From positions 79,605 to 143,604 of the forward strand of contig JAGWUB010000002.1 in NCBI GenBank assembly GCA_028868715.1: a stretch of DNA of 64,000 bases. Reading direction: 5' to 3'. Positions 4,924 through 55,999 of the stretch are shown here, in pieces (within the stretch, counting starts at the first letter, position 1; each line of letters begins with the position of its first letter). The translations under genes were made by a program, and so were the position numbers. The notes below the pieces were generated by a model. That model was not told where the DNA came from. It saw only the letters and a list, made by a program, of their open reading frames with translations, and searched no databases. The DNA is from Patescibacteria group bacterium. GTDB taxonomy: Bacteria > Patescibacteriota > Minisyncoccia > Phycocordibacterales > UBA9973.

Positions 4924-4942
4924 TGACGAAGGGCTGGCCGTG
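4924..4942. repeat. left copy of an imperfect direct repeat (tgacgaagggctgg + ccgtg) bracketing the nuclease cassette
   Basis: The 14-mer tgacgaagggctgg is exact at 4924-4937 and 7622-7635. Both copies are followed by ccgtg, but the right copy carries a 10-nt insertion gagactagga. Confidence 0.5.
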
Positions 4943-4979
4943 TGGCGCGAAGTCGGAACTAATTTAACAGCTTAAATTA

Positions 4980-5627
4980 CTAGACCGTAATTCGCTTATG
5001 AATAATTTCTGAGCCCTTTGACTTTCGAGGGAAACTTCCTTTTTCATCCACAAAAGAAAGTTCTTTATCAGGATGGTTGGTCTTTTTAGGGAAAAGTACT
5101 GTAATTTTTTTAATGTCAGTGTATGGTGCTACCTTCAATTTTTCTCCCTCAATCTCCGAAGTAGAACGGCCCGAGCGTACCTGCTTAGTTGGGCTTTCCT
5201 CTATAAGCTTACTCATAGCCTCAGCAGCTATTTGCCAGTAAGTACAGACGGCAATTAAGTGTTCAGCAGGAGTTCCTTCATGGTATTCCTCAAGATGCTC
5301 AAGCAACTCTTCTGTAAACTCCCATAGGGTGTCCCATATTTGCGATCCTTCTGAATAATCTATTTTTGTTGATTCTTGTAGCATTAACATAAATGCTAAA
5401 TTCAATAAAGGAACATTATTTTCAGCATGATGGGCAAATACTTCTAACCAATTACCTTCGAGTTTTCCATACAAGTTAGGATAATCTTTGTATTTCTCTT
5501 TTTTCTTTTCTTCCCATTCGGCATCAAATTTTTCACTAGCAATCTGTTCTTTTTCGTCTTCTTTTTGGCGATAAATTTTCCAAAGATAGTAAGCTATTAT
5601 TCCAAGTATTATATAAAGTAAAGTCAT
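4980..5627 (-). CDS. hypothetical protein with N-terminal TM anchor (third gene of the nuclease cassette)
   Basis: 215 aa, a single N-terminal hydrophobic helix. Only a 15-bp gap to the upstream gene. Confidence 0.55.
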   Translation of the reverse strand: MTLLYIILGIIAYYLWKIYRQKEDEKEQIASEKFDAEWEEKKKEKYKDYPNLYGKLEGNWLEVFAHHAENNVPLLNLAFMLMLQESTKIDYSEGSQIWDTLWEFTEELLEHLEEYHEGTPAEHLIAVCTYWQIAAEAMSKLIEESPTKQVRSGRSTSEIEGEKLKVAPYTDIKKITVLFPKKTNHPDKELSFVDEKGSFPRKSKGSEIIHKRITV

Positions 5628-5641
5628 ATATTTTTATTGTA

Positions 5642-6034
5642 TCATTCCTTATTTAATTCCCAAAGTTTCCAATAAACATCTTGAAAGTTTGGTAGTAGTG
5701 TTGGTATTTTATTTAATTTTTTATAGATATTTTCCTGTATTTCAAAAGCATCATTCCATGCATATTTTTCGTCAAAAATTTTACCATCACGACCTAAATA
5801 CTGAGAAAAGAGATGTGTTTCAATATTAGTTTCTGGGATAATAACTATTACACTATCAACCCAAAAATAGGTTGTATCATCATGTTCACCATTTGTATAG
5901 CTTTCTATTCTTAATGGTTCATCACGAAGTTTAATTTTTACTTTTGCCTTTAAATATTGTAGAAAATAATTAAGTTTATTTTCGTAATTTAAGACTTCTT
6001 CTTTTGCTGGTTTTTCTTTAAAGAATATTTTCAT
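5642..6034 (-). CDS. hypothetical 130-aa protein (second gene of the nuclease cassette)
   Basis: No recognisable motif. 19-bp gap to the nuclease gene and 15-bp gap to the next gene, so cotranscription is likely. Confidence 0.55.
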   Translation of the reverse strand: MKIFFKEKPAKEEVLNYENKLNYFLQYLKAKVKIKLRDEPLRIESYTNGEHDDTTYFWVDSVIVIIPETNIETHLFSQYLGRDGKIFDEKYAWNDAFEIQENIYKKLNKIPTLLPNFQDVYWKLWELNKE

Positions 6035-6052
6035 GATTTTATTTATATTATT

Positions 6053-7243
6053 TTAAACTCGTTCTTTTTCAATTGTTTTCAAAAACTCATCATATCTTGT
6101 TTTTGTATCGTCAATAATATTTGAGTAGTAAAGAACACTAAAACTGCCTGAACGATATCTCAACCTTTGTTTTAAATCAGCACTAACACTTTTACCAACT
6201 AAATATGCACTAAATGTGCTAAATTTAAAATGCTTTTCTGCAATAGCTATATAAGTTTCAAGTTGGTTTAAATCATCGGTCGTTAATTCATGAGATGGTC
6301 TTTTTAATTCAAGTATTACAAGCCTTTCTCCGACAGTTCCACAAACGAAGTCAGGTCTTTTCTTTCCATGTAATTTTTTGTTGTGTTTTTCTAATTGGTC
6401 GCCAATTGTTTTTCTAAGAGTAGCGTTAGAGTGTAATAGCCAATACCGTTCATCAATAAGCCACATAGCCCTTTCAAGAATTCTATGTATTGAGTTATCG
6501 CCTTTTATTTCCAAAGTTCTTGGGTCGTTAATTCTTTCCTCAAAAAGGTTAATAGTTTCTAGCCGAGTTCTAACCTGTTGAGCTACATTTGTAATAACAT
6601 TTAAGTTCCACCCTTTTAATAGTAAATCTAAGTCTTCAAGGGCACGTTGGGGTTGAGAAGGAAGTTTTTTAATCACAGATAAAAATGCCTCTCTAAAGCC
6701 TGCATTTGCATTGGTAACTACATCACTGATTTGTCCTAGAGTTTCTGTAAGACTATCAAAATCTTCAGCTGAAAGTTTTTTGGAATCTATGTGGGTAACT
6801 ATTTCCTTAAGTAATTCTGGATGACTAATAACTAAGTTGTTGATCTCTTTCTTTTTTTCGGCAGAACTAATTCCTTTTTTAGAAATGTTTTTAATAATTT
6901 TTTCAGCAGATTTCCAGCCAAGTATTGGGGTTAGTTTTTCGTCAATTATATTTTTTACAGTTTCCCATTGGCCTGGTTTAGTAATGTGAAAAGTTGCTCT
7001 TCCCCCTGGCCACCATTTTGAAAGGGTAATTCTTTTTTGAACTTCTCCGTATTCAGGATTGGTAGTTGTGATTTGAACACTAGTTTGTCTATTTACAACC
7101 GACTTAGCTAAGACCCAATCGGGCTCAAAACGAGAACTTTTACATTTTTCGCAGTCAGTATTTCTAAGGTTATTTTCCAGTCCACAACGACTGCATATTT
7201 TTACTTTATTTTCCAGTTTAGTTTTTAATGGTTTTTTAGGCAT
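6053..7243 (-). CDS. zinc-ribbon + NucS/RecB-family PD-(D/E)xK nuclease domain protein (Shedu/DUF4263-like candidate)
   Basis: N-terminal CSRCG...CEKCK zinc ribbon. C-terminal core RPDFVCGTVGERLVILELKRPSHELTTDDLNQLETY has D-14-ExK-13-QxxxY spacing, matching the NucS/RecB/Cas4-type catalytic geometry. Confidence 0.6.
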   Translation of the reverse strand: MPKKPLKTKLENKVKICSRCGLENNLRNTDCEKCKSSRFEPDWVLAKSVVNRQTSVQITTTNPEYGEVQKRITLSKWWPGGRATFHITKPGQWETVKNIIDEKLTPILGWKSAEKIIKNISKKGISSAEKKKEINNLVISHPELLKEIVTHIDSKKLSAEDFDSLTETLGQISDVVTNANAGFREAFLSVIKKLPSQPQRALEDLDLLLKGWNLNVITNVAQQVRTRLETINLFEERINDPRTLEIKGDNSIHRILERAMWLIDERYWLLHSNATLRKTIGDQLEKHNKKLHGKKRPDFVCGTVGERLVILELKRPSHELTTDDLNQLETYIAIAEKHFKFSTFSAYLVGKSVSADLKQRLRYRSGSFSVLYYSNIIDDTKTRYDEFLKTIEKERV

Positions 7244-7301
7244 ATTAAACTTTATCGTACAACTTTTACTATAAAAATCAATATTTTACATAAGTTAGGA
7301 A

Positions 7302-7541
7302 TCAATTAAATAGCCTTAATTTTTTCTCTCTTCTCCAACCTTTTATTTCTGCCTCTCTTCTTCTAGCTTCTTTTAATGTTGTAAATTTTTCAGAATATTT
7401 TAAAGTTACCGGTCGACGTATTTTAGTATAGTGTGCGCCGTCTTTATAATTATTGTGCTGCTGCAATCTTCTTTCAAGATTATTGGTGCAACCGACATAT
7501 AAAGACTTATCGACGCATTCTAGGATGTAAGTGAAATACAT
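7302..7541 (-). CDS. GIY-YIG nuclease family protein (UPF0213/YhbQ-like)
   Basis: YILECVDKSLYVGCTNNLERRLQQH GIY-YIG motif. 79 aa. Confidence 0.75.
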   Translation of the reverse strand: MYFTYILECVDKSLYVGCTNNLERRLQQHNNYKDGAHYTKIRRPVTLKYSEKFTTLKEARRREAEIKGWRREKKLRLFN

Positions 7542-7621
7542 ATATAATATCTTCCCTCACATACGTTCGGGACCTTCGTCCCAGATTTATGATCCGCTGT
7601 CGCAGACCCTGAGGAACAAAG

Positions 7622-7650
7622 TGACGAAGGGCTGGGAGACTAGGACCGTG
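7622..7650. repeat. right copy of the cassette-flanking repeat, fused to a 15-nt duplicate of the tRNA-Gln 3' end (gctgggagactagga at 7631-7645)
   Basis: 7631-7645 is identical to 7789-7803, which covers the tRNA-Gln 3' T-stem strand, acceptor strand and discriminator. 7622-7635 is identical to 4924-4937. Confidence 0.55.
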
Positions 7651-7789
7651 AGTACACTTATCGGTCATTACATGACCAGTATACCTTTTCAATCTCGCAT
7701 ACGAGATAATGAAAAGCTTTTCGCTTCCTAGTCACAAGCAAAGCAGTTTGCTCGTTTCTCCCATCAAAAAATCGCTGCACTCTTTTTTG

Positions 7790-7860
7790 CTGGGAGACTA
7801 GGAATCGAACCTAGATTAAAGGCTTCAAAGGCCTCTGTCCTACCGTTAGACGATCTCCCA
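7790..7860 (-). tRNA. tRNA-Gln (anticodon UUG)
   Basis: Hand-folded cloverleaf: acceptor TGGGAGA/TCTCCCA, T-arm CTAGG-TTCGATT-CCTAG, anticodon loop CTTTGAA. CCA is not encoded. Confidence 0.8.
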
Positions 7861-27515: not shown

Positions 27516-29456
27516 ATGAAAATCGTTAACATAATTCCGCTGAAAAAGGGGCTCTTGCAGAACGACCTGACTTATTTCACCACCAAGGAGATTGAAAGTG
27601 GTAGTATTGTTGCTATCATGCTTCGCAATAAAAAAGTTTTAGGTTTGGTCATCTCATGCTTGAATGTATCGGATACCAGAATGAACATAAAGGGTATGGA
27701 CTTTAATCTAAAGAAGATTGTTGAAGTCAAAGAAAAATCAATTTTCTTAAAAGAATACATAGAATCCGTGCTCCTGGTCAGTGAATATTTTGCTTGTAGT
27801 AAAAATAATGCTATCACATCTCTAATACCAGCTATTTTTAGAGAAGAATACGATAAAATTACTTCCACAAAAGCCAGACCTATTGCTAATAGAAAAAAAG
27901 AAAAAAGTATTAAAGCTGAAAAGCTACTCTTGCAAGAGCCATTTGAAAATCGTATTTCAATATATAAAACATTAATTCGTGAAAATTTTGCCAGGAAAAA
28001 ATCAGTTTTTATTGTATTGCCGACTGAAAATGACATTAAGATTTTCGAAGAACAACTTTCTAAGGGAATAGAATCTTTTACCTATGCTTTCCATGGGGGA
28101 CTTAGCCAAAAGAAGATTATTGAAAAATTTAAGGAATTAGTAAATGACGAGCACCCAGTATTGCTTTTGGGTACTGCGCCATTTTTATCTATACCTAGGG
28201 CTGATATGGGAGCCATAGTGTTAGAACATGAGAGCTCTAATAGCTATAAAATGATAGCCAGACCTCATATTGATCTACGAATTTTTGTGGAACTTTTTGC
28301 TTCAAAAATCAATGCGAAGTTTATATTAAGCGATACTCTTTTGCGTTTTGAAACCATAGCCAGGCGCGAATTAGATAGATTAATACCAATGCACCCTTTG
28401 TCTTTTAGGATTAACTTTGATGGAGAGATTAAAATTGAAAATCCCAGACCCAGGTCAGAGACTTCGAGTTCTAAATTTAAAATATTTTCTGAAAATAGCA
28501 TAGAAGAGATAAAAAATTCAATTCTAAAAAAGAAGAATGTATTTATCTTTACCCTGCGAAAGGGCCTAGCTACACAAACTTTATGTAGAGACTGTGGTGA
28601 AATAGTAAGTTGTGATAAATGTTTAGCCCCACTGGTGCTTTATAATTCTACCACTGACAAAGGACGATTTTTTGTTTGTAATCGTTGTGGTGAAGAAAAG
28701 AATACAGAAACAGTCTGTAGTCACTGCCATAGTTGGAATTTAGTTCCATTGGGCATTGGTACAGATACTGTATCGGAAGAATTAAATAAAATTTTTCCAA
28801 AAGTTAAAATTTTAAAACTAGACAAGGAAGCTGTGAAAACTAAAAAGGAGGCTGATAAAATTATAAAAGAATTTGAAGAAAACCCTGGCACTATACTTGT
28901 CGGCACCGAAATGGCAACCTATTATCTAAAAAATAAAGTTGACCTATCTATTGTCGCAGCATTTGATTCATTTTGGAGCATACCAAATTTTAAAATGAGT
29001 GAGAAAATAATTCAGCTAATAATTTCCATTATTTCCAATACGCAGGGTAAATTTATTATCCAAACTAAAAACGATCAAGATCCTGCCATTTTAGCAATTC
29101 AATCTAGAAATTTATTGTCTTTTGTACGCACCGAGCTGGAGGATAGAAAAAATCTTTCTTATCCACCCTTTAAACGTTTTATTAAAATTAAACATATTGG
29201 AAATAAGGTAGATACTTTAAAGGCAAAAGAATTACTGGAAAAAACCTTGGTGGATTACAGGCCTATGATTTTTAGCGGATTTATGGCTCAAATAAAAAGT
29301 AGGTACATTACCAATGCCTTGATAAAACTAGAAAATAACTACTGGTCATTACCCGAACTATCATCTGACTCTGGCTTGGACAAAAATCTATTAGCGAAAC
29401 TTTTAACACTTCCGCTTTCTTTTGAAGTATTTGTAGATCCAGAAGATTTGTTATAG
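27516..29456 (+). CDS. priA: PriA-like primosomal protein N' with intact Cys-rich region but degenerate Walker A/B
   Basis: The sequence aligns along PriA, and the CxxC x4 block is present. The Walker A position reads QEPFENRI instead of GxGKT. The DEEH box reads LEHE. Confidence 0.65.
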   Translation: MKIVNIIPLKKGLLQNDLTYFTTKEIESGSIVAIMLRNKKVLGLVISCLNVSDTRMNIKGMDFNLKKIVEVKEKSIFLKEYIESVLLVSEYFACSKNNAITSLIPAIFREEYDKITSTKARPIANRKKEKSIKAEKLLLQEPFENRISIYKTLIRENFARKKSVFIVLPTENDIKIFEEQLSKGIESFTYAFHGGLSQKKIIEKFKELVNDEHPVLLLGTAPFLSIPRADMGAIVLEHESSNSYKMIARPHIDLRIFVELFASKINAKFILSDTLLRFETIARRELDRLIPMHPLSFRINFDGEIKIENPRPRSETSSSKFKIFSENSIEEIKNSILKKKNVFIFTLRKGLATQTLCRDCGEIVSCDKCLAPLVLYNSTTDKGRFFVCNRCGEEKNTETVCSHCHSWNLVPLGIGTDTVSEELNKIFPKVKILKLDKEAVKTKKEADKIIKEFEENPGTILVGTEMATYYLKNKVDLSIVAAFDSFWSIPNFKMSEKIIQLIISIISNTQGKFIIQTKNDQDPAILAIQSRNLLSFVRTELEDRKNLSYPPFKRFIKIKHIGNKVDTLKAKELLEKTLVDYRPMIFSGFMAQIKSRYITNALIKLENNYWSLPELSSDSGLDKNLLAKLLTLPLSFEVFVDPEDLL

Positions 29457-29462
29457 AAAAAA

Positions 29463-29825
29463 TTAGGGTAGATTTTCTACATCTATTACCTCCTCTTTCT
29501 TTAAAAATTTATTGATTTTTTTACTCATGGTAATTGTTCTCGTAGAACCAATTACAATTATTAAAATTCCGATTACAATCAATATAATAGCTATATTCTG
29601 GAATGATATATTTCCAGGAGTTAATTTAAATAGAGTTACTCCAATAACTATTACGGTCAAACTAGTACGAATATAAGCTAGGTAAGTAGCCTCATTTGTA
29701 AGTATAGTTCGCTCTATCGCCAAGTAATCACGTAAGATAAGTTCTTTGGCTAAAAATTCTTGGTAAACTCGTGGGTCTATATCTTTATTATTTTTAAAAA
29801 TACCTTTGTAAAAATGAATATTCAT
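29463..29825 (-). CDS. DUF202/YidH-family membrane protein
   Basis: RDYLAIERTILTNEATYLAYIRTSL motif followed by TM helices. Confidence 0.6.
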   Translation of the reverse strand: MNIHFYKGIFKNNKDIDPRVYQEFLAKELILRDYLAIERTILTNEATYLAYIRTSLTVIVIGVTLFKLTPGNISFQNIAIILIVIGILIIVIGSTRTITMSKKINKFLKKEEVIDVENLP

Positions 29826-29845
29826 AACTTTACTATAGCATAATT

Positions 29846-30544
29846 TTAATAATTTAATGGGGTAACCAATATTGTAAATTCACCCTTTTGTTTTATCGGA
29901 TTTTTGTTCAAATATTCCAACAACTCAGCTGGTGTGCCTGTCTTAAATTCTTCGTAAATTTTTGTCAGTTCTCGGGCAATGCAAACTTTTCTAGTTGGAC
30001 AAAATTTGATAAGTGATTCTAGGGTTTTTAAAATTCTATGTGGAGATTCGTAAAAAATATATGTACGCTTAGCTTCTGCAATCTCTTTAAATAAAGTCTC
30101 TCTACCCTTTTTGTGTGGCAAAAAACCAAGAAAAGTAAACTCATGAGTCGGCAATCCAGAGGCTGAAAGAGCTGTTATGATAGCAGTAGACCCAGGAATA
30201 GGAATCACCTCCACTTCACTATTTACGCCATGGCTGAAATAAGATTTAATCTTTGAAACAAGCATTGCTCCAGGGTCAGAAATACCGGGAGTGCCAGCAT
30301 CTGAGACTAATGCTAAATCTTTCCCCTCTTCTAAAAGTCCAAGGATTTTATCTACTTTTGCGAGCTTACTTTGCGCATGATAGCTCATTGTAGGTTTTTT
30401 TATTTCGTATTTATCTAAAAGTTTTTTAGTAACCCGTGTATCTTCACACAGTATGAGATCAACATTTTTCAATGTTTCAATGGCTCGAAACGTTATGTCT
30501 CCCATGTTTCCTATTGGCGTAGCTACAACGTAAAATTTTGACAT
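29846..30544 (-). CDS. rsmI: 16S rRNA (cytidine1402-2'-O)-methyltransferase
   Basis: Tetrapyrrole-methylase fold, VATPIGNMGDIT...LCEDTR motifs. Confidence 0.8.
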   Translation of the reverse strand: MSKFYVVATPIGNMGDITFRAIETLKNVDLILCEDTRVTKKLLDKYEIKKPTMSYHAQSKLAKVDKILGLLEEGKDLALVSDAGTPGISDPGAMLVSKIKSYFSHGVNSEVEVIPIPGSTAIITALSASGLPTHEFTFLGFLPHKKGRETLFKEIAEAKRTYIFYESPHRILKTLESLIKFCPTRKVCIARELTKIYEEFKTGTPAELLEYLNKNPIKQKGEFTILVTPLNY

Positions 30545-53530: not shown

Positions 53531-54595
53531 TTATCTGCTGATTATAACCAAAATAATGCCAACGATCGCGGACACAACTGACAAAACCCAAAAACGCATA
53601 GTAACTTTATAGGACGGCCAGCCAAGTGCCTCAAAGTGATGATGAATAGGTGCGAGTTTAAATAATTTTTTACCATTTCTAAAGCGCTTGGATGCCATCT
53701 GTAAAATCACCGAACCAGAACTTATGACTAATGGTAGGGCAATGATTGGAAGAATTAAGACTGTATTGGTTAAAAATGCAATTGTGGCTATAGTAATAGT
53801 CAGCCCCATAATCCCTGTCTCTCCCATGTAGAATCTTGCTGGTGGAATATTAAACCAGAGGAAAGCCAAAGTACATCCAGTGACAACTCCACAAAAAGCA
53901 GCAATATCAATTTGATTGTTAGCATAAGCTATCACGGAATATGAAGCAAAAATGGAAGCTAAAACTCCACCAGAGAGACCATCGAGCCCATCAATCACTC
54001 CACCAGAAAAAGTTGCCAGAGCGACAATTATAAAGAACGGTATAATCAGGATCCCTATATATAACTCTCCCATAAATGGAATGTGGATACTATTCATTCC
54101 CAATTTATAAAAAAACCAAAGACCTATAAGTAGAGACATCGTAGCGATAAGTAAAGCCTTCCACTTACGCCAAGATGCATCATCGTGAGCAAATTTACTA
54201 TGACCGTATATTTGGATTAGGTCGTCCCAAAGTCCGATAAATGATCCAAAAAGAAGCGTGAAGAAAGGAATAAAAGTTTGATTTCTACTTAAAAAACTAA
54301 TTTTCTCAATACTTTCAGAGTCAATTAAAATTGACAGTATATAAAAAATCATAGTAGTCAAGAAAATTGAAAACCAAACAATGATTCCACCCACCCGCGG
54401 TGTATTGAGTTCCCCTTTTCCATTTTGAATTTTTGAAAAATCTGGATTATCAAAAGAAGCATCTCGAGAATATTTTTTCCACATCTTATATTTAAAGAAA
54501 AAGTGCGTGGCTACAGGGGTAAGAAAAAGCCCCAAAAAAAAGGCTACAGTCGTCGGTATAAAAATTTTAACTAAGTCTATATACATACAAATCAA
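53531..54595 (-). CDS. mraY: phospho-N-acetylmuramoyl-pentapeptide transferase
   Basis: GT4 polyprenyl-phosphate transferase motifs, 10 TM helices. Confidence 0.85.
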   Translation of the reverse strand: MICMYIDLVKIFIPTTVAFFLGLFLTPVATHFFFKYKMWKKYSRDASFDNPDFSKIQNGKGELNTPRVGGIIVWFSIFLTTMIFYILSILIDSESIEKISFLSRNQTFIPFFTLLFGSFIGLWDDLIQIYGHSKFAHDDASWRKWKALLIATMSLLIGLWFFYKLGMNSIHIPFMGELYIGILIIPFFIIVALATFSGGVIDGLDGLSGGVLASIFASYSVIAYANNQIDIAAFCGVVTGCTLAFLWFNIPPARFYMGETGIMGLTITIATIAFLTNTVLILPIIALPLVISSGSVILQMASKRFRNGKKLFKLAPIHHHFEALGWPSYKVTMRFWVLSVVSAIVGIILVIISR

Positions 54596-54610
54596 AGTAT
54601 AACAGAAATT

Positions 54611-55999
54611 TTAAGAAATTTCTCTAATAGTCTGCCCATTTTCCTCATTGAAAGAAATTTTTTTACCTTCTAAAATAGCATTAAAATAATCCGCATCCAT
54701 CCAAAATTTACCATTTTCATCCTTTGACCATCTTGGCCAGTAGCAAATACCAGGAAACCCAGCGTCCAAGTAATCCTGCTCTGTCAGTGGAGTACCAAAA
54801 ATAAATTGTTTTTGAATTAAGGTTTCTTTTTCTTTTATATAATTTTTTATATATTCTAGATAATCTTTATTTTTAGATTTTTCAGAAAGAAGCTTAGCTT
54901 TTTCCAGCTTCTCTTTTAATTCTTCCCTTTCTTTTATATATGGTTTATCTAATCTACAACCAGACATAAATTCGATTTTTCGTTTTAAAATAGGGTCGTT
55001 TACTGCTCTCTTTAAACTATTTTTTAATAGTGTTGGTGAAATTAGCGATTCACTCACTGTAGCCTTGTCCTCTGATATGCCACCATAACATCCATAAGCA
55101 TCAGCATACCCCGGGATTTCTCCAGCAGCTTTAAAATTATTTTTTATTGCTTCGTCTCCAGAAGAATATACATAAGGTTTTGCTCCTTCATTTAACCTAG
55201 ACCAGCCTTCAAGGTCGTCGAGTTCATTTTTAAAATTATCATCCAAGGCATGAGTTAGTTCATGGGTAACATCTCCACGGTTATCAAATAGAGAATCAAA
55301 CTTCCCAGACATTTCAGCACCATTTACTTGAGCTTCGACACCTTCTTCTAATTCCGTTAAATTTAATTTTTTCCAACCTGATCTCTTAATGGAAAAGTTA
55401 GGGAACATTTTAAGTCCTCTGTAAAATGAATTGAGATTGGTTAGGAAAAAATTTTCACTTTTGTCGGTAATAGTAATGTCATATTCATCTACTATTTTTC
55501 TTGCCATCTTCACATTTTGCAAAAATTGAAGAGTGGTAAAAAATATATTTCCACCGATTTTATATTCAGGCATAGAAAAGTTCATTGCCTCAGCTGCTTT
55601 TTCTTTTCTCCATTTTACAAATTCTTCAACGAACCCTCTATATAATTGTGAATCTTGTGCTTCGTTATAAAGTTTTTCTATCCTATCATAATATTCTTCT
55701 AATTTTTTTGTTTGGTCTTTGTCTAGTCTATCTTGCTCAGCATCCATGGCATTTCTCACTTCTTTTAATAACAATGCATTCCAATATTCAAAGTTTTTTT
55801 TAGTTTCCTCAAGTTCCGCTTCGGTGGGTTTTAAAATTTCTGGGCTTTCTACTTTACCATGTAAACCCAAGACCAAGCCCAATCCGACTCCAGCCTTCAT
55901 TGCACCTTTTATAAAATCCCTACGGCCAACTTTGTCACCAGCTTCAGGTTTATTATGCTCCACATTTTCTTTAATTTTTGGTATTCCTTCTGTTGCCAT
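54611..55999 (-). CDS. hypothetical exported protein with twin-arginine-like signal (GRRDFIKGAMKAGVGLG) and HExxH (HELTH) motif
   Basis: Motifs seen directly. No family assignment. Confidence 0.5.
   Translation of the reverse strand: MATEGIPKIKENVEHNKPEAGDKVGRRDFIKGAMKAGVGLGLVLGLHGKVESPEILKPTEAELEETKKNFEYWNALLLKEVRNAMDAEQDRLDKDQTKKLEEYYDRIEKLYNEAQDSQLYRGFVEEFVKWRKEKAAEAMNFSMPEYKIGGNIFFTTLQFLQNVKMARKIVDEYDITITDKSENFFLTNLNSFYRGLKMFPNFSIKRSGWKKLNLTELEEGVEAQVNGAEMSGKFDSLFDNRGDVTHELTHALDDNFKNELDDLEGWSRLNEGAKPYVYSSGDEAIKNNFKAAGEIPGYADAYGCYGGISEDKATVSESLISPTLLKNSLKRAVNDPILKRKIEFMSGCRLDKPYIKEREELKEKLEKAKLLSEKSKNKDYLEYIKNYIKEKETLIQKQFIFGTPLTEQDYLDAGFPGICYWPRWSKDENGKFWMDADYFNAILEGKKISFNEENGQTIREIS

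Follow-up and report, generated by a model that had tools for sequence, protein, structure and literature searches.

A zinc-ribbon PD-(D/E)xK nuclease gene on a tRNA-Gln islet of a Patescibacteria group bacterium, a candidate solitary immune nuclease

Locus organization

Three closely spaced minus-strand genes, here called A, B, and C, lie beside a tRNA-Gln gene of a Patescibacteria group bacterium (GTDB lineage Patescibacteriota; Minisyncoccia; Phycocordibacterales; UBA9973). They were analyzed within a 64,000-nt stretch of contig JAGWUB010000002.1 (assembly GCA_028868715.1, positions 79,605 to 143,604, forward strand), hereafter the window, and coordinates are counted from its first base (Table 1). 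An earlier note on this DNA, made by a model from the sequence without database searches, had proposed that the three genes form a Shedu-like or new multi-gene defense or abortive-infection module with a nuclease as effector. The present report is chiefly concerned with gene A, which encodes the putative nuclease.

The open reading frames (ORFs; 396, 130, and 215 aa) were confirmed at the coordinates given in the note, beside the tRNA-Gln gene. They are indeed tightly packed, with stop-to-start gaps of 18 nt (A to B) and 14 nt (B to C); the 19 and 15 bp of the note result from coordinate subtraction. The GIY-YIG gene described upstream of A was recovered by Pfam. A sigma70-like promoter had been suggested for the 58-bp gap upstream of A; no site was found inside this gap, and the region holds 12 promoter-like sites vs 13.3 expected in shuffles. 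The promoter and terminator scan as a whole was not above shuffles, and the tRNA was the sole match in an Rfam scan.

The direct repeats noted around the block are exact. The 15-nt sequence GCTGGGAGACTAGGA forms the 3' end of the tRNA-Gln gene (7789-7803) and has an exact second copy at 7631-7645, and the 14-nt sequence TGACGAAGGGCTGG is present at the downstream edge of the block and again at 7622-7635, so that the two upstream copies overlap by 5 nt (7631-7635). In whole-window shuffles, 0.00 and 0.02 such repeats, respectively, are expected by chance. The repeats are exact and one of them duplicates the 3' end of the tRNA, so the 2.7-kb block between them, in which the only genes are GIY-YIG, A, B, and C, bears the marks of a tRNA-targeted islet. 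An unoccupied tRNA-Gln(UUG) site ending in TCCTAGTCTCCCAGC and followed by the PsbP-like gene would be the form expected before the islet was acquired. A possible remnant of an earlier or nested integration is the non-coding stretch of 143 bp (7646-7788) between the tRNA 3' end and its 15-nt copy, which has no RNA family match.

Downstream of C are a 52-aa ORF and a gene for a 302-aa PsbP_2-like protein (Pfam). The flanking genes tested were MGMT, MazG, GH18, PsbP-like, GIY-YIG, OmdA, DnaX, Dus, FtsQ-like, and DprA; there is no DNA methyltransferase among them, and the wider flanks of the islet are housekeeping genes. The gene order A-B-C is kept in contigs of the same organism from other samples. 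The G+C content is 0.32 across 5-7 kb vs about 0.36-0.40 for most of the window; it is equally low in a few other intervals.

Table 1. Features of the locus, domains of protein A, and collected loci of B and C relatives. Positions are window coordinates unless preceded by an L-number; L-numbers denote collected homologue loci. Spans of B contexts cover the tRNA-proximal B genes.
Feature	Position	Strand	Remarks
Gene A	6053-7243	minus	396 aa; conserved element of the finding
Gene B	5642-6034	minus	130 aa; ORF
Gene C	4980-5627	minus	215 aa; ORF
tRNA-Gln (anticodon UUG)	7789-7860	minus	ARAGORN; Rfam tRNA 64.8 bits
Stand-alone GIY-YIG domain gene	7302-7541	minus	79 aa; Pfam PF01541 E 3.5e-18; within islet
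Composite 24-nt repeat, att-like junction	7622-7645		upstream islet edge; last 15 nt are the tRNA-Gln 3' end copy
14-nt exact direct repeat TGACGAAGGGCTGG	4924-4937		downstream islet edge, 43 nt beyond C stop codon
A residues 14-38, C4 zinc ribbon	7130-7204	minus	L40e/RanBP2-like; C17, C20, C31, C34 invariant
A residues 40-110, small conserved beta-rich domain	6914-7126	minus	no family match
A residues 111-245, long helical linker	6509-6913	minus	about 130 residues
A residues 246-396, PD-(D/E)xK domain	6056-6508	minus	E257/E265, D298, E312-x-K314, Q327-x3-Y331
B context, window	5642-7860		order A - B - C
B context, L008/L017			A homologue (75% identity) - B-like (29%, E 1e-13) - 125-aa zinc-ribbon protein
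B context, L011-13/L109	L011:4596-6399		bona fide Shedu (SduA_C, E 9e-26) - B (65%), 4-nt overlap - serine recombinase
B context, L009/L010	L009:5386-6417		membrane protein - B - membrane protein
B context, L014-16	L014:5841-6399		B - 138-aa membrane protein
B context, L108	L108:38-1555		membrane-anchored Trypsin_2 protease - B; DUF3800 on opposite strand
C-family loci	L097:3821-5651; L098:3192-5660; L099:607-2872		216-aa protein

Protein A and its relatives

Protein A is built of a zinc ribbon, a beta-rich domain, a helical linker, and a C-terminal nuclease domain. Conservation was read from an alignment of 50 A homologues, in which E265, D298, E312, K314, Q327, and Y331 of the nuclease domain are invariant and at least 90% of the sequences keep E257, bearing out the complete catalytic constellation that had been recognized from the single sequence. 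In the AlphaFold2 model (predicted local distance difference test score 81.7), the zinc ribbon and a three-stranded sheet occupy residues 14-76, a helical region residues 90-240, and an alpha/beta nuclease core residues 250-396, and the residues of PD-(D/E)xK motifs I-IV sit on the expected helix and strand elements. The structural and profile check proposed for A thus returned both fold and motifs, and a PD-(D/E)xK fold with the complete active-site set E...D...ExK...QxxxY is supported. A is a genuine and probably active nuclease. The beta-rich domain, which has a KWWPGG loop, is invariant at R71, T73, L74, K76, W77, W78, G80, and G81 and is presumed to be a DNA-binding or sensor domain.

Family searches gave few matches. 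Against Pfam, A had only sub-threshold matches to HSDR_N (E 6e-5) and zinc ribbons, a sequence search of the PDB returned the L40e-like zinc ribbon as the sole match, and PADLOC returned nothing significant, with a sub-threshold match to Cas4. Against NCBIfam, A matches the BbrUII/HgiDII model NF050001 (E 4e-8, 32.3 bits vs a 550-bit cutoff) across the C-terminal region of the model only (460-647 of 659). A residues 117-392 align to the C-terminal half of the ~644-aa proteins that make up phrog_6203 (E 1e-27), and hhalign aligned A residues 206-396 to a BbrUII-like protein of Yersinia phage P37 (96.7% probability, E 4e-10). The P37 protein (670 aa; L103:2756-4768, MT239398.1) matches NF050001 with E 6e-98 and adjoins a Dcm methyltransferase; P37-type relatives, as well as plasmid 'ATP-binding protein' genes found by tblastn, carry an N-terminal MutL/GHKL ATPase (HSP90-type match). 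These matches show that the linker and nuclease of A (residues about 117-396) share homology with the C-terminal half of enzymes of the BbrUII/HgiDII type. Those enzymes are about 590-670 aa long, with an N-terminal GHKL/MutL-like ATPase and a cognate 5-methylcytosine methyltransferase beside them, whereas A has the zinc ribbon and beta domain in place of the ATPase and no adjacent methyltransferase. Where A has its ExK lysine and its motif IV glutamine, the aligned residues of the P37 protein are different (EFM and R). The C-terminal domain of HgiDII was unassigned to any fold in a 2008 classification of type II enzymes (PMC2441816). Through the canonical motifs of the A family and the profile homology, the A sequences support a PD-(D/E)xK assignment for it.

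Shedu is an anti-phage nuclease, an autoinhibited tetramer that is activated by DNA ends or other signals. The note's Shedu-like label held for A in domain layout and genomic habits and failed for sequence membership in DUF4263, NucS, or Cas4. Like Shedu, A has a variable N-terminal domain, a helical linker, and a C-terminal PD-(D/E)xK nuclease with motifs I-IV; both occur as solitary genes in defense islands and mobile elements, often in restriction-modification (RM) or BREX-like loci, and the small protein B is found after either A or a true Shedu. However, A had no PF14082/DUF4263 match at E <= 1, no PADLOC SduA match, and no BLASTP similarity to Shedu, and hhalign, run with the same alignment of A homologues against a PF14082-positive Shedu (E 9e-26), gave 1.8% probability. 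In structure, A is no closer to Shedu than it is to NucS, FokI, or BspD6I, its nuclease core shows no more likeness to AspBHI and MspJI than to other enzymes, and motifs III and IV are 13 residues apart vs 29 in Bacillus cereus Shedu (10.1101/2023.08.10.552793). With NucS/EndoMS and RecB/Cas4-type nucleases, A has D...ExK...QxxxY and the core fold in common, and the catalytic core alone superposes. Membership in NucS was rejected (NCBIfam E 0.035, 13.2 bits vs a cutoff of 216; no Pfam NucS match), and A does not have the NucS N-terminal domain. Cas4 was rejected as well (E 0.033-0.13, 12 bits vs a cutoff of 65), as A has no Cas4 iron-sulfur cysteines, and there are no CRISPR-associated neighbors in the ORF list of the window. 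On these comparisons A represents a distinct family that is related to HgiDII-type restriction enzymes and Shedu-like in design and habits.

Distribution and genomic neighborhoods of the A family

More than 366 homologues of A were found at 55-77% identity, about 330-440 aa in length. None has an informative name; those with a name are 'hypothetical protein' or, wrongly, 'ribosomal protein L40E'. They come from Patescibacteria, Peregrinibacteria, Planctomycetota, Acidobacteriota (Pyrinomonadaceae), and Dadabacteria, from proteobacterial metagenome-assembled genomes (MAGs) labelled Thiodiazotropha and Deltaproteobacteria, and from an archaeal MAG labelled Ranarchaeia. Such identity across phyla points to horizontal transfer of A. 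A scan of genome contigs with the single A protein yielded five loci, a lower bound on distribution because its peptides are query-specific. In the collections searched, the family was confined to metagenome assemblies and to MAGs from uncultivated lineages, and it may have been overlooked for that reason.

Across 88 A-homologue loci, for which the neighbors were clustered and 107 immediate neighbors scanned, there is no obligate partner of A. An Eco57I/MmeI-like (Type IIG or PglX-like) methyltransferase lies directly upstream, at gaps of -7 to 65 nt, in L019, L052, L053, L058, and L062, and the A homologue lies within a DUF1156 methyltransferase/DUF499 (HmaC) operon (Hma) in three to four loci (L002, L040, L042, L083). 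KwaB (Kiwa) adjoins A in L004, HEPN in L005, and CBASS and Gabija in L006; serine recombinases are adjacent in five loci, and L001 has a Rep3/DnaG-like plasmid context. Schlafen, SNase, and SF1 helicases are other neighbors. Variable defense and mobility neighbors with no obligate partner are the pattern of a solitary defense-island or mobile-element gene. An apparent 'conserved downstream neighbor' of 135-137 aa was spurious, as the ORFs behind it were internal to the A gene or frameshifted versions of it. Linkage to tRNA genes is not general in the family, since a tRNA was present in the flanks at only 4 of 41 loci.

A divergent clade (34-41% identity) is represented by seven loci (L073, L077, L079, L087, L090, L091, L095), in which A follows a HerA/DUF87-like ATPase of 750-950 aa and a Replic_Relax protein of ~290 aa in one operon. 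This arrangement suggests a plasmid or an element resembling actinomycete integrative and conjugative elements (ICEs).

The habit of A has parallels in known systems. Of 5,499 Shedu genes, 602 are within RM systems and 87 in BREX (10.1101/2023.08.10.552793), and stand-alone PD-(D/E)xK nucleases are embedded in BREX and DUF499 systems as auxiliary effectors (PMC12839542). These auxiliary or backup restriction endonucleases of BREX and DUF499 (Hma) systems (PMC12839542) share the habit of the A homologues that lie inside Hma operons or after PglX/Type IIG-like genes; they represent a genomic habit and not a protein family, however, and most A homologues are outside such loci. Neither 'zinc ribbon' nor 'Zn-ribbon' occurs in the main text of PMC12839542.

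Individual neighborhoods were also of note. L006 (1-11264) is a dense defense island with a Peptidase_M78/HTH pair, CBASS (SAVED-HNH effector and SMODS cyclase), the A homologue, DUF2130, and a Gabija-like OLD-TOPRIM with a UvrD helicase. Schlafen AlbA_2 accounts for 4 of the 107 immediate neighbors, and in L058 (1641-5852) the gene directly upstream of the A homologue encodes an Eco57I/MmeI-like methyltransferase of 1,403 aa that carries Schlafen AlbA_2 at its C terminus.

Proteins B and C

The structural model of B is confident and matches no solved fold. B is rare, as a profile search found only 72 clusters among 1.84 billion representatives. With the exception of a single outlier of 675 aa and two short fragments, these are stand-alone proteins of about 110-180 aa, and B is therefore not a domain that became detached from a larger protein. 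Among the 88 A-homologue loci, the B profile matched only L008 and L017 (the same sequence in two datasets), where the B-like gene begins at the base right after the stop of the A homologue.

Six independent contexts of B were recovered (Table 1). Wherever the flank of a B locus is long enough, B is preceded within about 0.1-1.8 kb by a tRNA gene of like orientation, namely Gln-UUG (window, L011), Gln-CUG (L014), or Ser (L009 and L108; Ser-GGA, Ser-GCU). The gene between tRNA and B may be A, Shedu, or one for a membrane protein or a Trypsin_2 protease, or there may be none. The shared tRNA-Gln(UUG) of the window and L011 means that two Patescibacteria have different nucleases, A or Shedu, before the same small protein. 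There were no att-like repeats in the sequence covered at the other B loci. B is possibly a portable accessory of Shedu-type nucleases, and possibly a mere resident of tRNA-proximal integration hot spots.

Protein C has an N-terminal hydrophobic segment, read directly from the sequence as a transmembrane helix (no predictor), and no match among Pfam, PADLOC, NCBIfam, or PHROG families. At least 313 homologues were found in Patescibacteria at 60-76% identity. They occur in contexts such as UvrA-UvrC-Ddl-C in two genomes and, in another, a helix-turn-helix protein, a 182-aa protein, C, and a 272-aa protein. The C profile had no match in the 88 A-homologue loci or the other B loci. Although it lies inside the same repeat-bracketed block, the membrane protein C is a bystander.

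Interpretation and alternatives

We favor, with moderate confidence, the reading that A is a solitary immune nuclease gained on a tRNA islet, with B as a possible accessory and C as a bystander. A belongs to an uncharacterized, horizontally mobile family of solitary DNA nucleases. Some feature of invading DNA would be bound or sensed by the N-terminal zinc-ribbon/beta module; the linker would serve oligomerization and keep the enzyme restrained, and the nuclease domain would cut the invading DNA. On its own, A would be an innate-immunity nuclease of the Shedu or type IV restriction kind, and it might also assist RM or BREX-like systems as an auxiliary effector. It probably arrived at the tRNA-Gln 3' end on the 2.7-kb islet, together with the GIY-YIG gene, B, and C. 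B would be either a small accessory that A can do without or another occupant of islets near tRNA genes.

Several points weigh against this reading. The defense role of the A family is inferred from genomic context, that is, by guilt by association, and about half of the A-homologue loci are short contigs, so the neighbor census is incomplete. The family proper is present in 0 of 50,697 phage and 72,556 plasmid records and on just 2 of the 2.9 million viral contigs, and the plasmid- or ICE-like operons of the divergent clade may indicate that A serves the mobile element and not host defense. The N-terminal beta domain has no recognized relative in Pfam, NCBIfam, or PADLOC, which makes a sensor role for it conjectural. 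The genes of the islet include no integrase or recombinase, and an empty site in a related genome did not turn up in genome and metagenome scans that were aimed at A homologues; for these two reasons, recent acquisition of the islet is not proven.

The three-gene module of the earlier note, weighed here as a joint system of A, B, and C for defense or abortive infection in which the membrane protein would be the sensor or the effector, is very improbable. The genes do share a strand, short gaps, and one repeat-bracketed islet, and their order is kept in contigs of the same organism, but the comparative data are strongly against this model: C is beside none of the 88 A homologues, its family is found in unrelated contexts, and B is beside A in one other independent locus. 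A, B, and C were all without significant PADLOC matches, and the note's link to defense survives for the relatives of A in defense islands and mobile elements. A two-component Shedu-like system of A and B, with B as a regulatory, adaptor, or DNA-binding subunit in the manner of KELA/KELB, is possible but rather doubtful. B directly follows a PD-(D/E)xK nuclease of ~400 aa in three of its six contexts (window, L008/L017, and L011-13/L109), and at the tRNA-Gln(UUG) position of two genomes it is A or Shedu that stands in front of B. There is also a precedent in KELShedu, a two-gene Shedu with a 12.6-kDa partner that has been shown experimentally (10.1101/2025.09.13.674623), in which, as with A and B, a small protein is operonic with a ~40-kDa PD-(D/E)xK nuclease. 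The small gene KELA is upstream of its nuclease, however, and B downstream of A; KELB is a DUF4263 protein and A is not, and KELA and B are likened by description and not by sequence. Furthermore, a B-like gene is absent from 86 of the 88 A-homologue loci, so A is not dependent on B, and B also occurs without a nuclease, beside membrane proteins or the Trypsin_2 protease. Co-residence at tRNA-proximal hot spots could explain the linkage, and A and B do not co-evolve: the A homologue of 75% identity has a B of 29%, and the B of 65% is paired with Shedu.

That A is a restriction endonuclease proper, either a type IV modification reader or a nuclease subunit recruited by methyltransferase systems, is unlikely. 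Its only sequence relatives outside the A family are the BbrUII/HgiDII type II restriction enzymes, it is translationally coupled to Eco57I/MmeI-like methyltransferases in five loci and within a DUF1156 operon in three to four, and its highly conserved N-terminal domain would suit a ligand that does not vary, for instance a modified base. Most A loci, including that of the window, nevertheless have no nearby methyltransferase, and 55-77% identity across phyla, putative recognition module included, is unlike sequence-specific type II enzymes. On the reader question, the sole evidence is that no similarity of the N-terminal domain to SRA, EVE, YTH, or ASCH readers was detected. Service to the mobile element, through plasmid or ICE maintenance, competitor exclusion, or homing-like spread in place of host immunity, is decidedly unlikely; the serine recombinases (5 loci), the Rep3/DnaG-like context of L001, the HerA-like - Replic_Relax - A operons (7 loci), and the two viral-contig matches argue for it, and the many A homologues in chromosomal defense islands with no mobility genes in view argue against it. 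The mobile-element and defense readings overlap, as defense genes routinely ride mobile elements. A housekeeping repair nuclease of the NucS/EndoMS kind, with which A shares its motifs and core fold, is hardly credible given the sporadic cross-phylum spread of A at high identity, its islet and defense-island contexts, the missing NucS N-terminal domain, and an NCBIfam NucS score of 13 bits against a cutoff of 216.

If A does defend against phages, as in the favored reading of a solitary immune nuclease, a compact one-gene nuclease system is added to those known. Current ideas are not overturned, as solitary PD-(D/E)xK nucleases in defense islands are a familiar theme. The exchange of A for Shedu before the same B, with the tRNA-Gln site unchanged, suggests that the two nucleases are functionally equivalent and offers a handle on B as a possible accessory subunit; if B serves A and Shedu alike, two sequence-unrelated nuclease families would be functionally interchangeable. 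The more ambitious proposal that the A family is a new, broad class of single-gene immune nucleases, with the zinc-ribbon/KWWPGG module as a hitherto undescribed sensor of invading DNA and with B as a portable subunit for A or Shedu at tRNA-Gln islets, is one that we regard as improbable at present.

Further observations

The GIY-YIG protein of the islet has weak PADLOC matches to the candidate system PDC-S14 (E 0.004-0.005) and a match to T5orf172 (E 5.5e-4). In L007, one A homologue adjoins a T5orf172-FtsK fusion. Elsewhere in the window, the 1-kb intervals 29001-30000 and 54001-55000 have G+C contents of 0.304 and 0.317, respectively, as low as that of the islet or lower, and may be further accessory segments.

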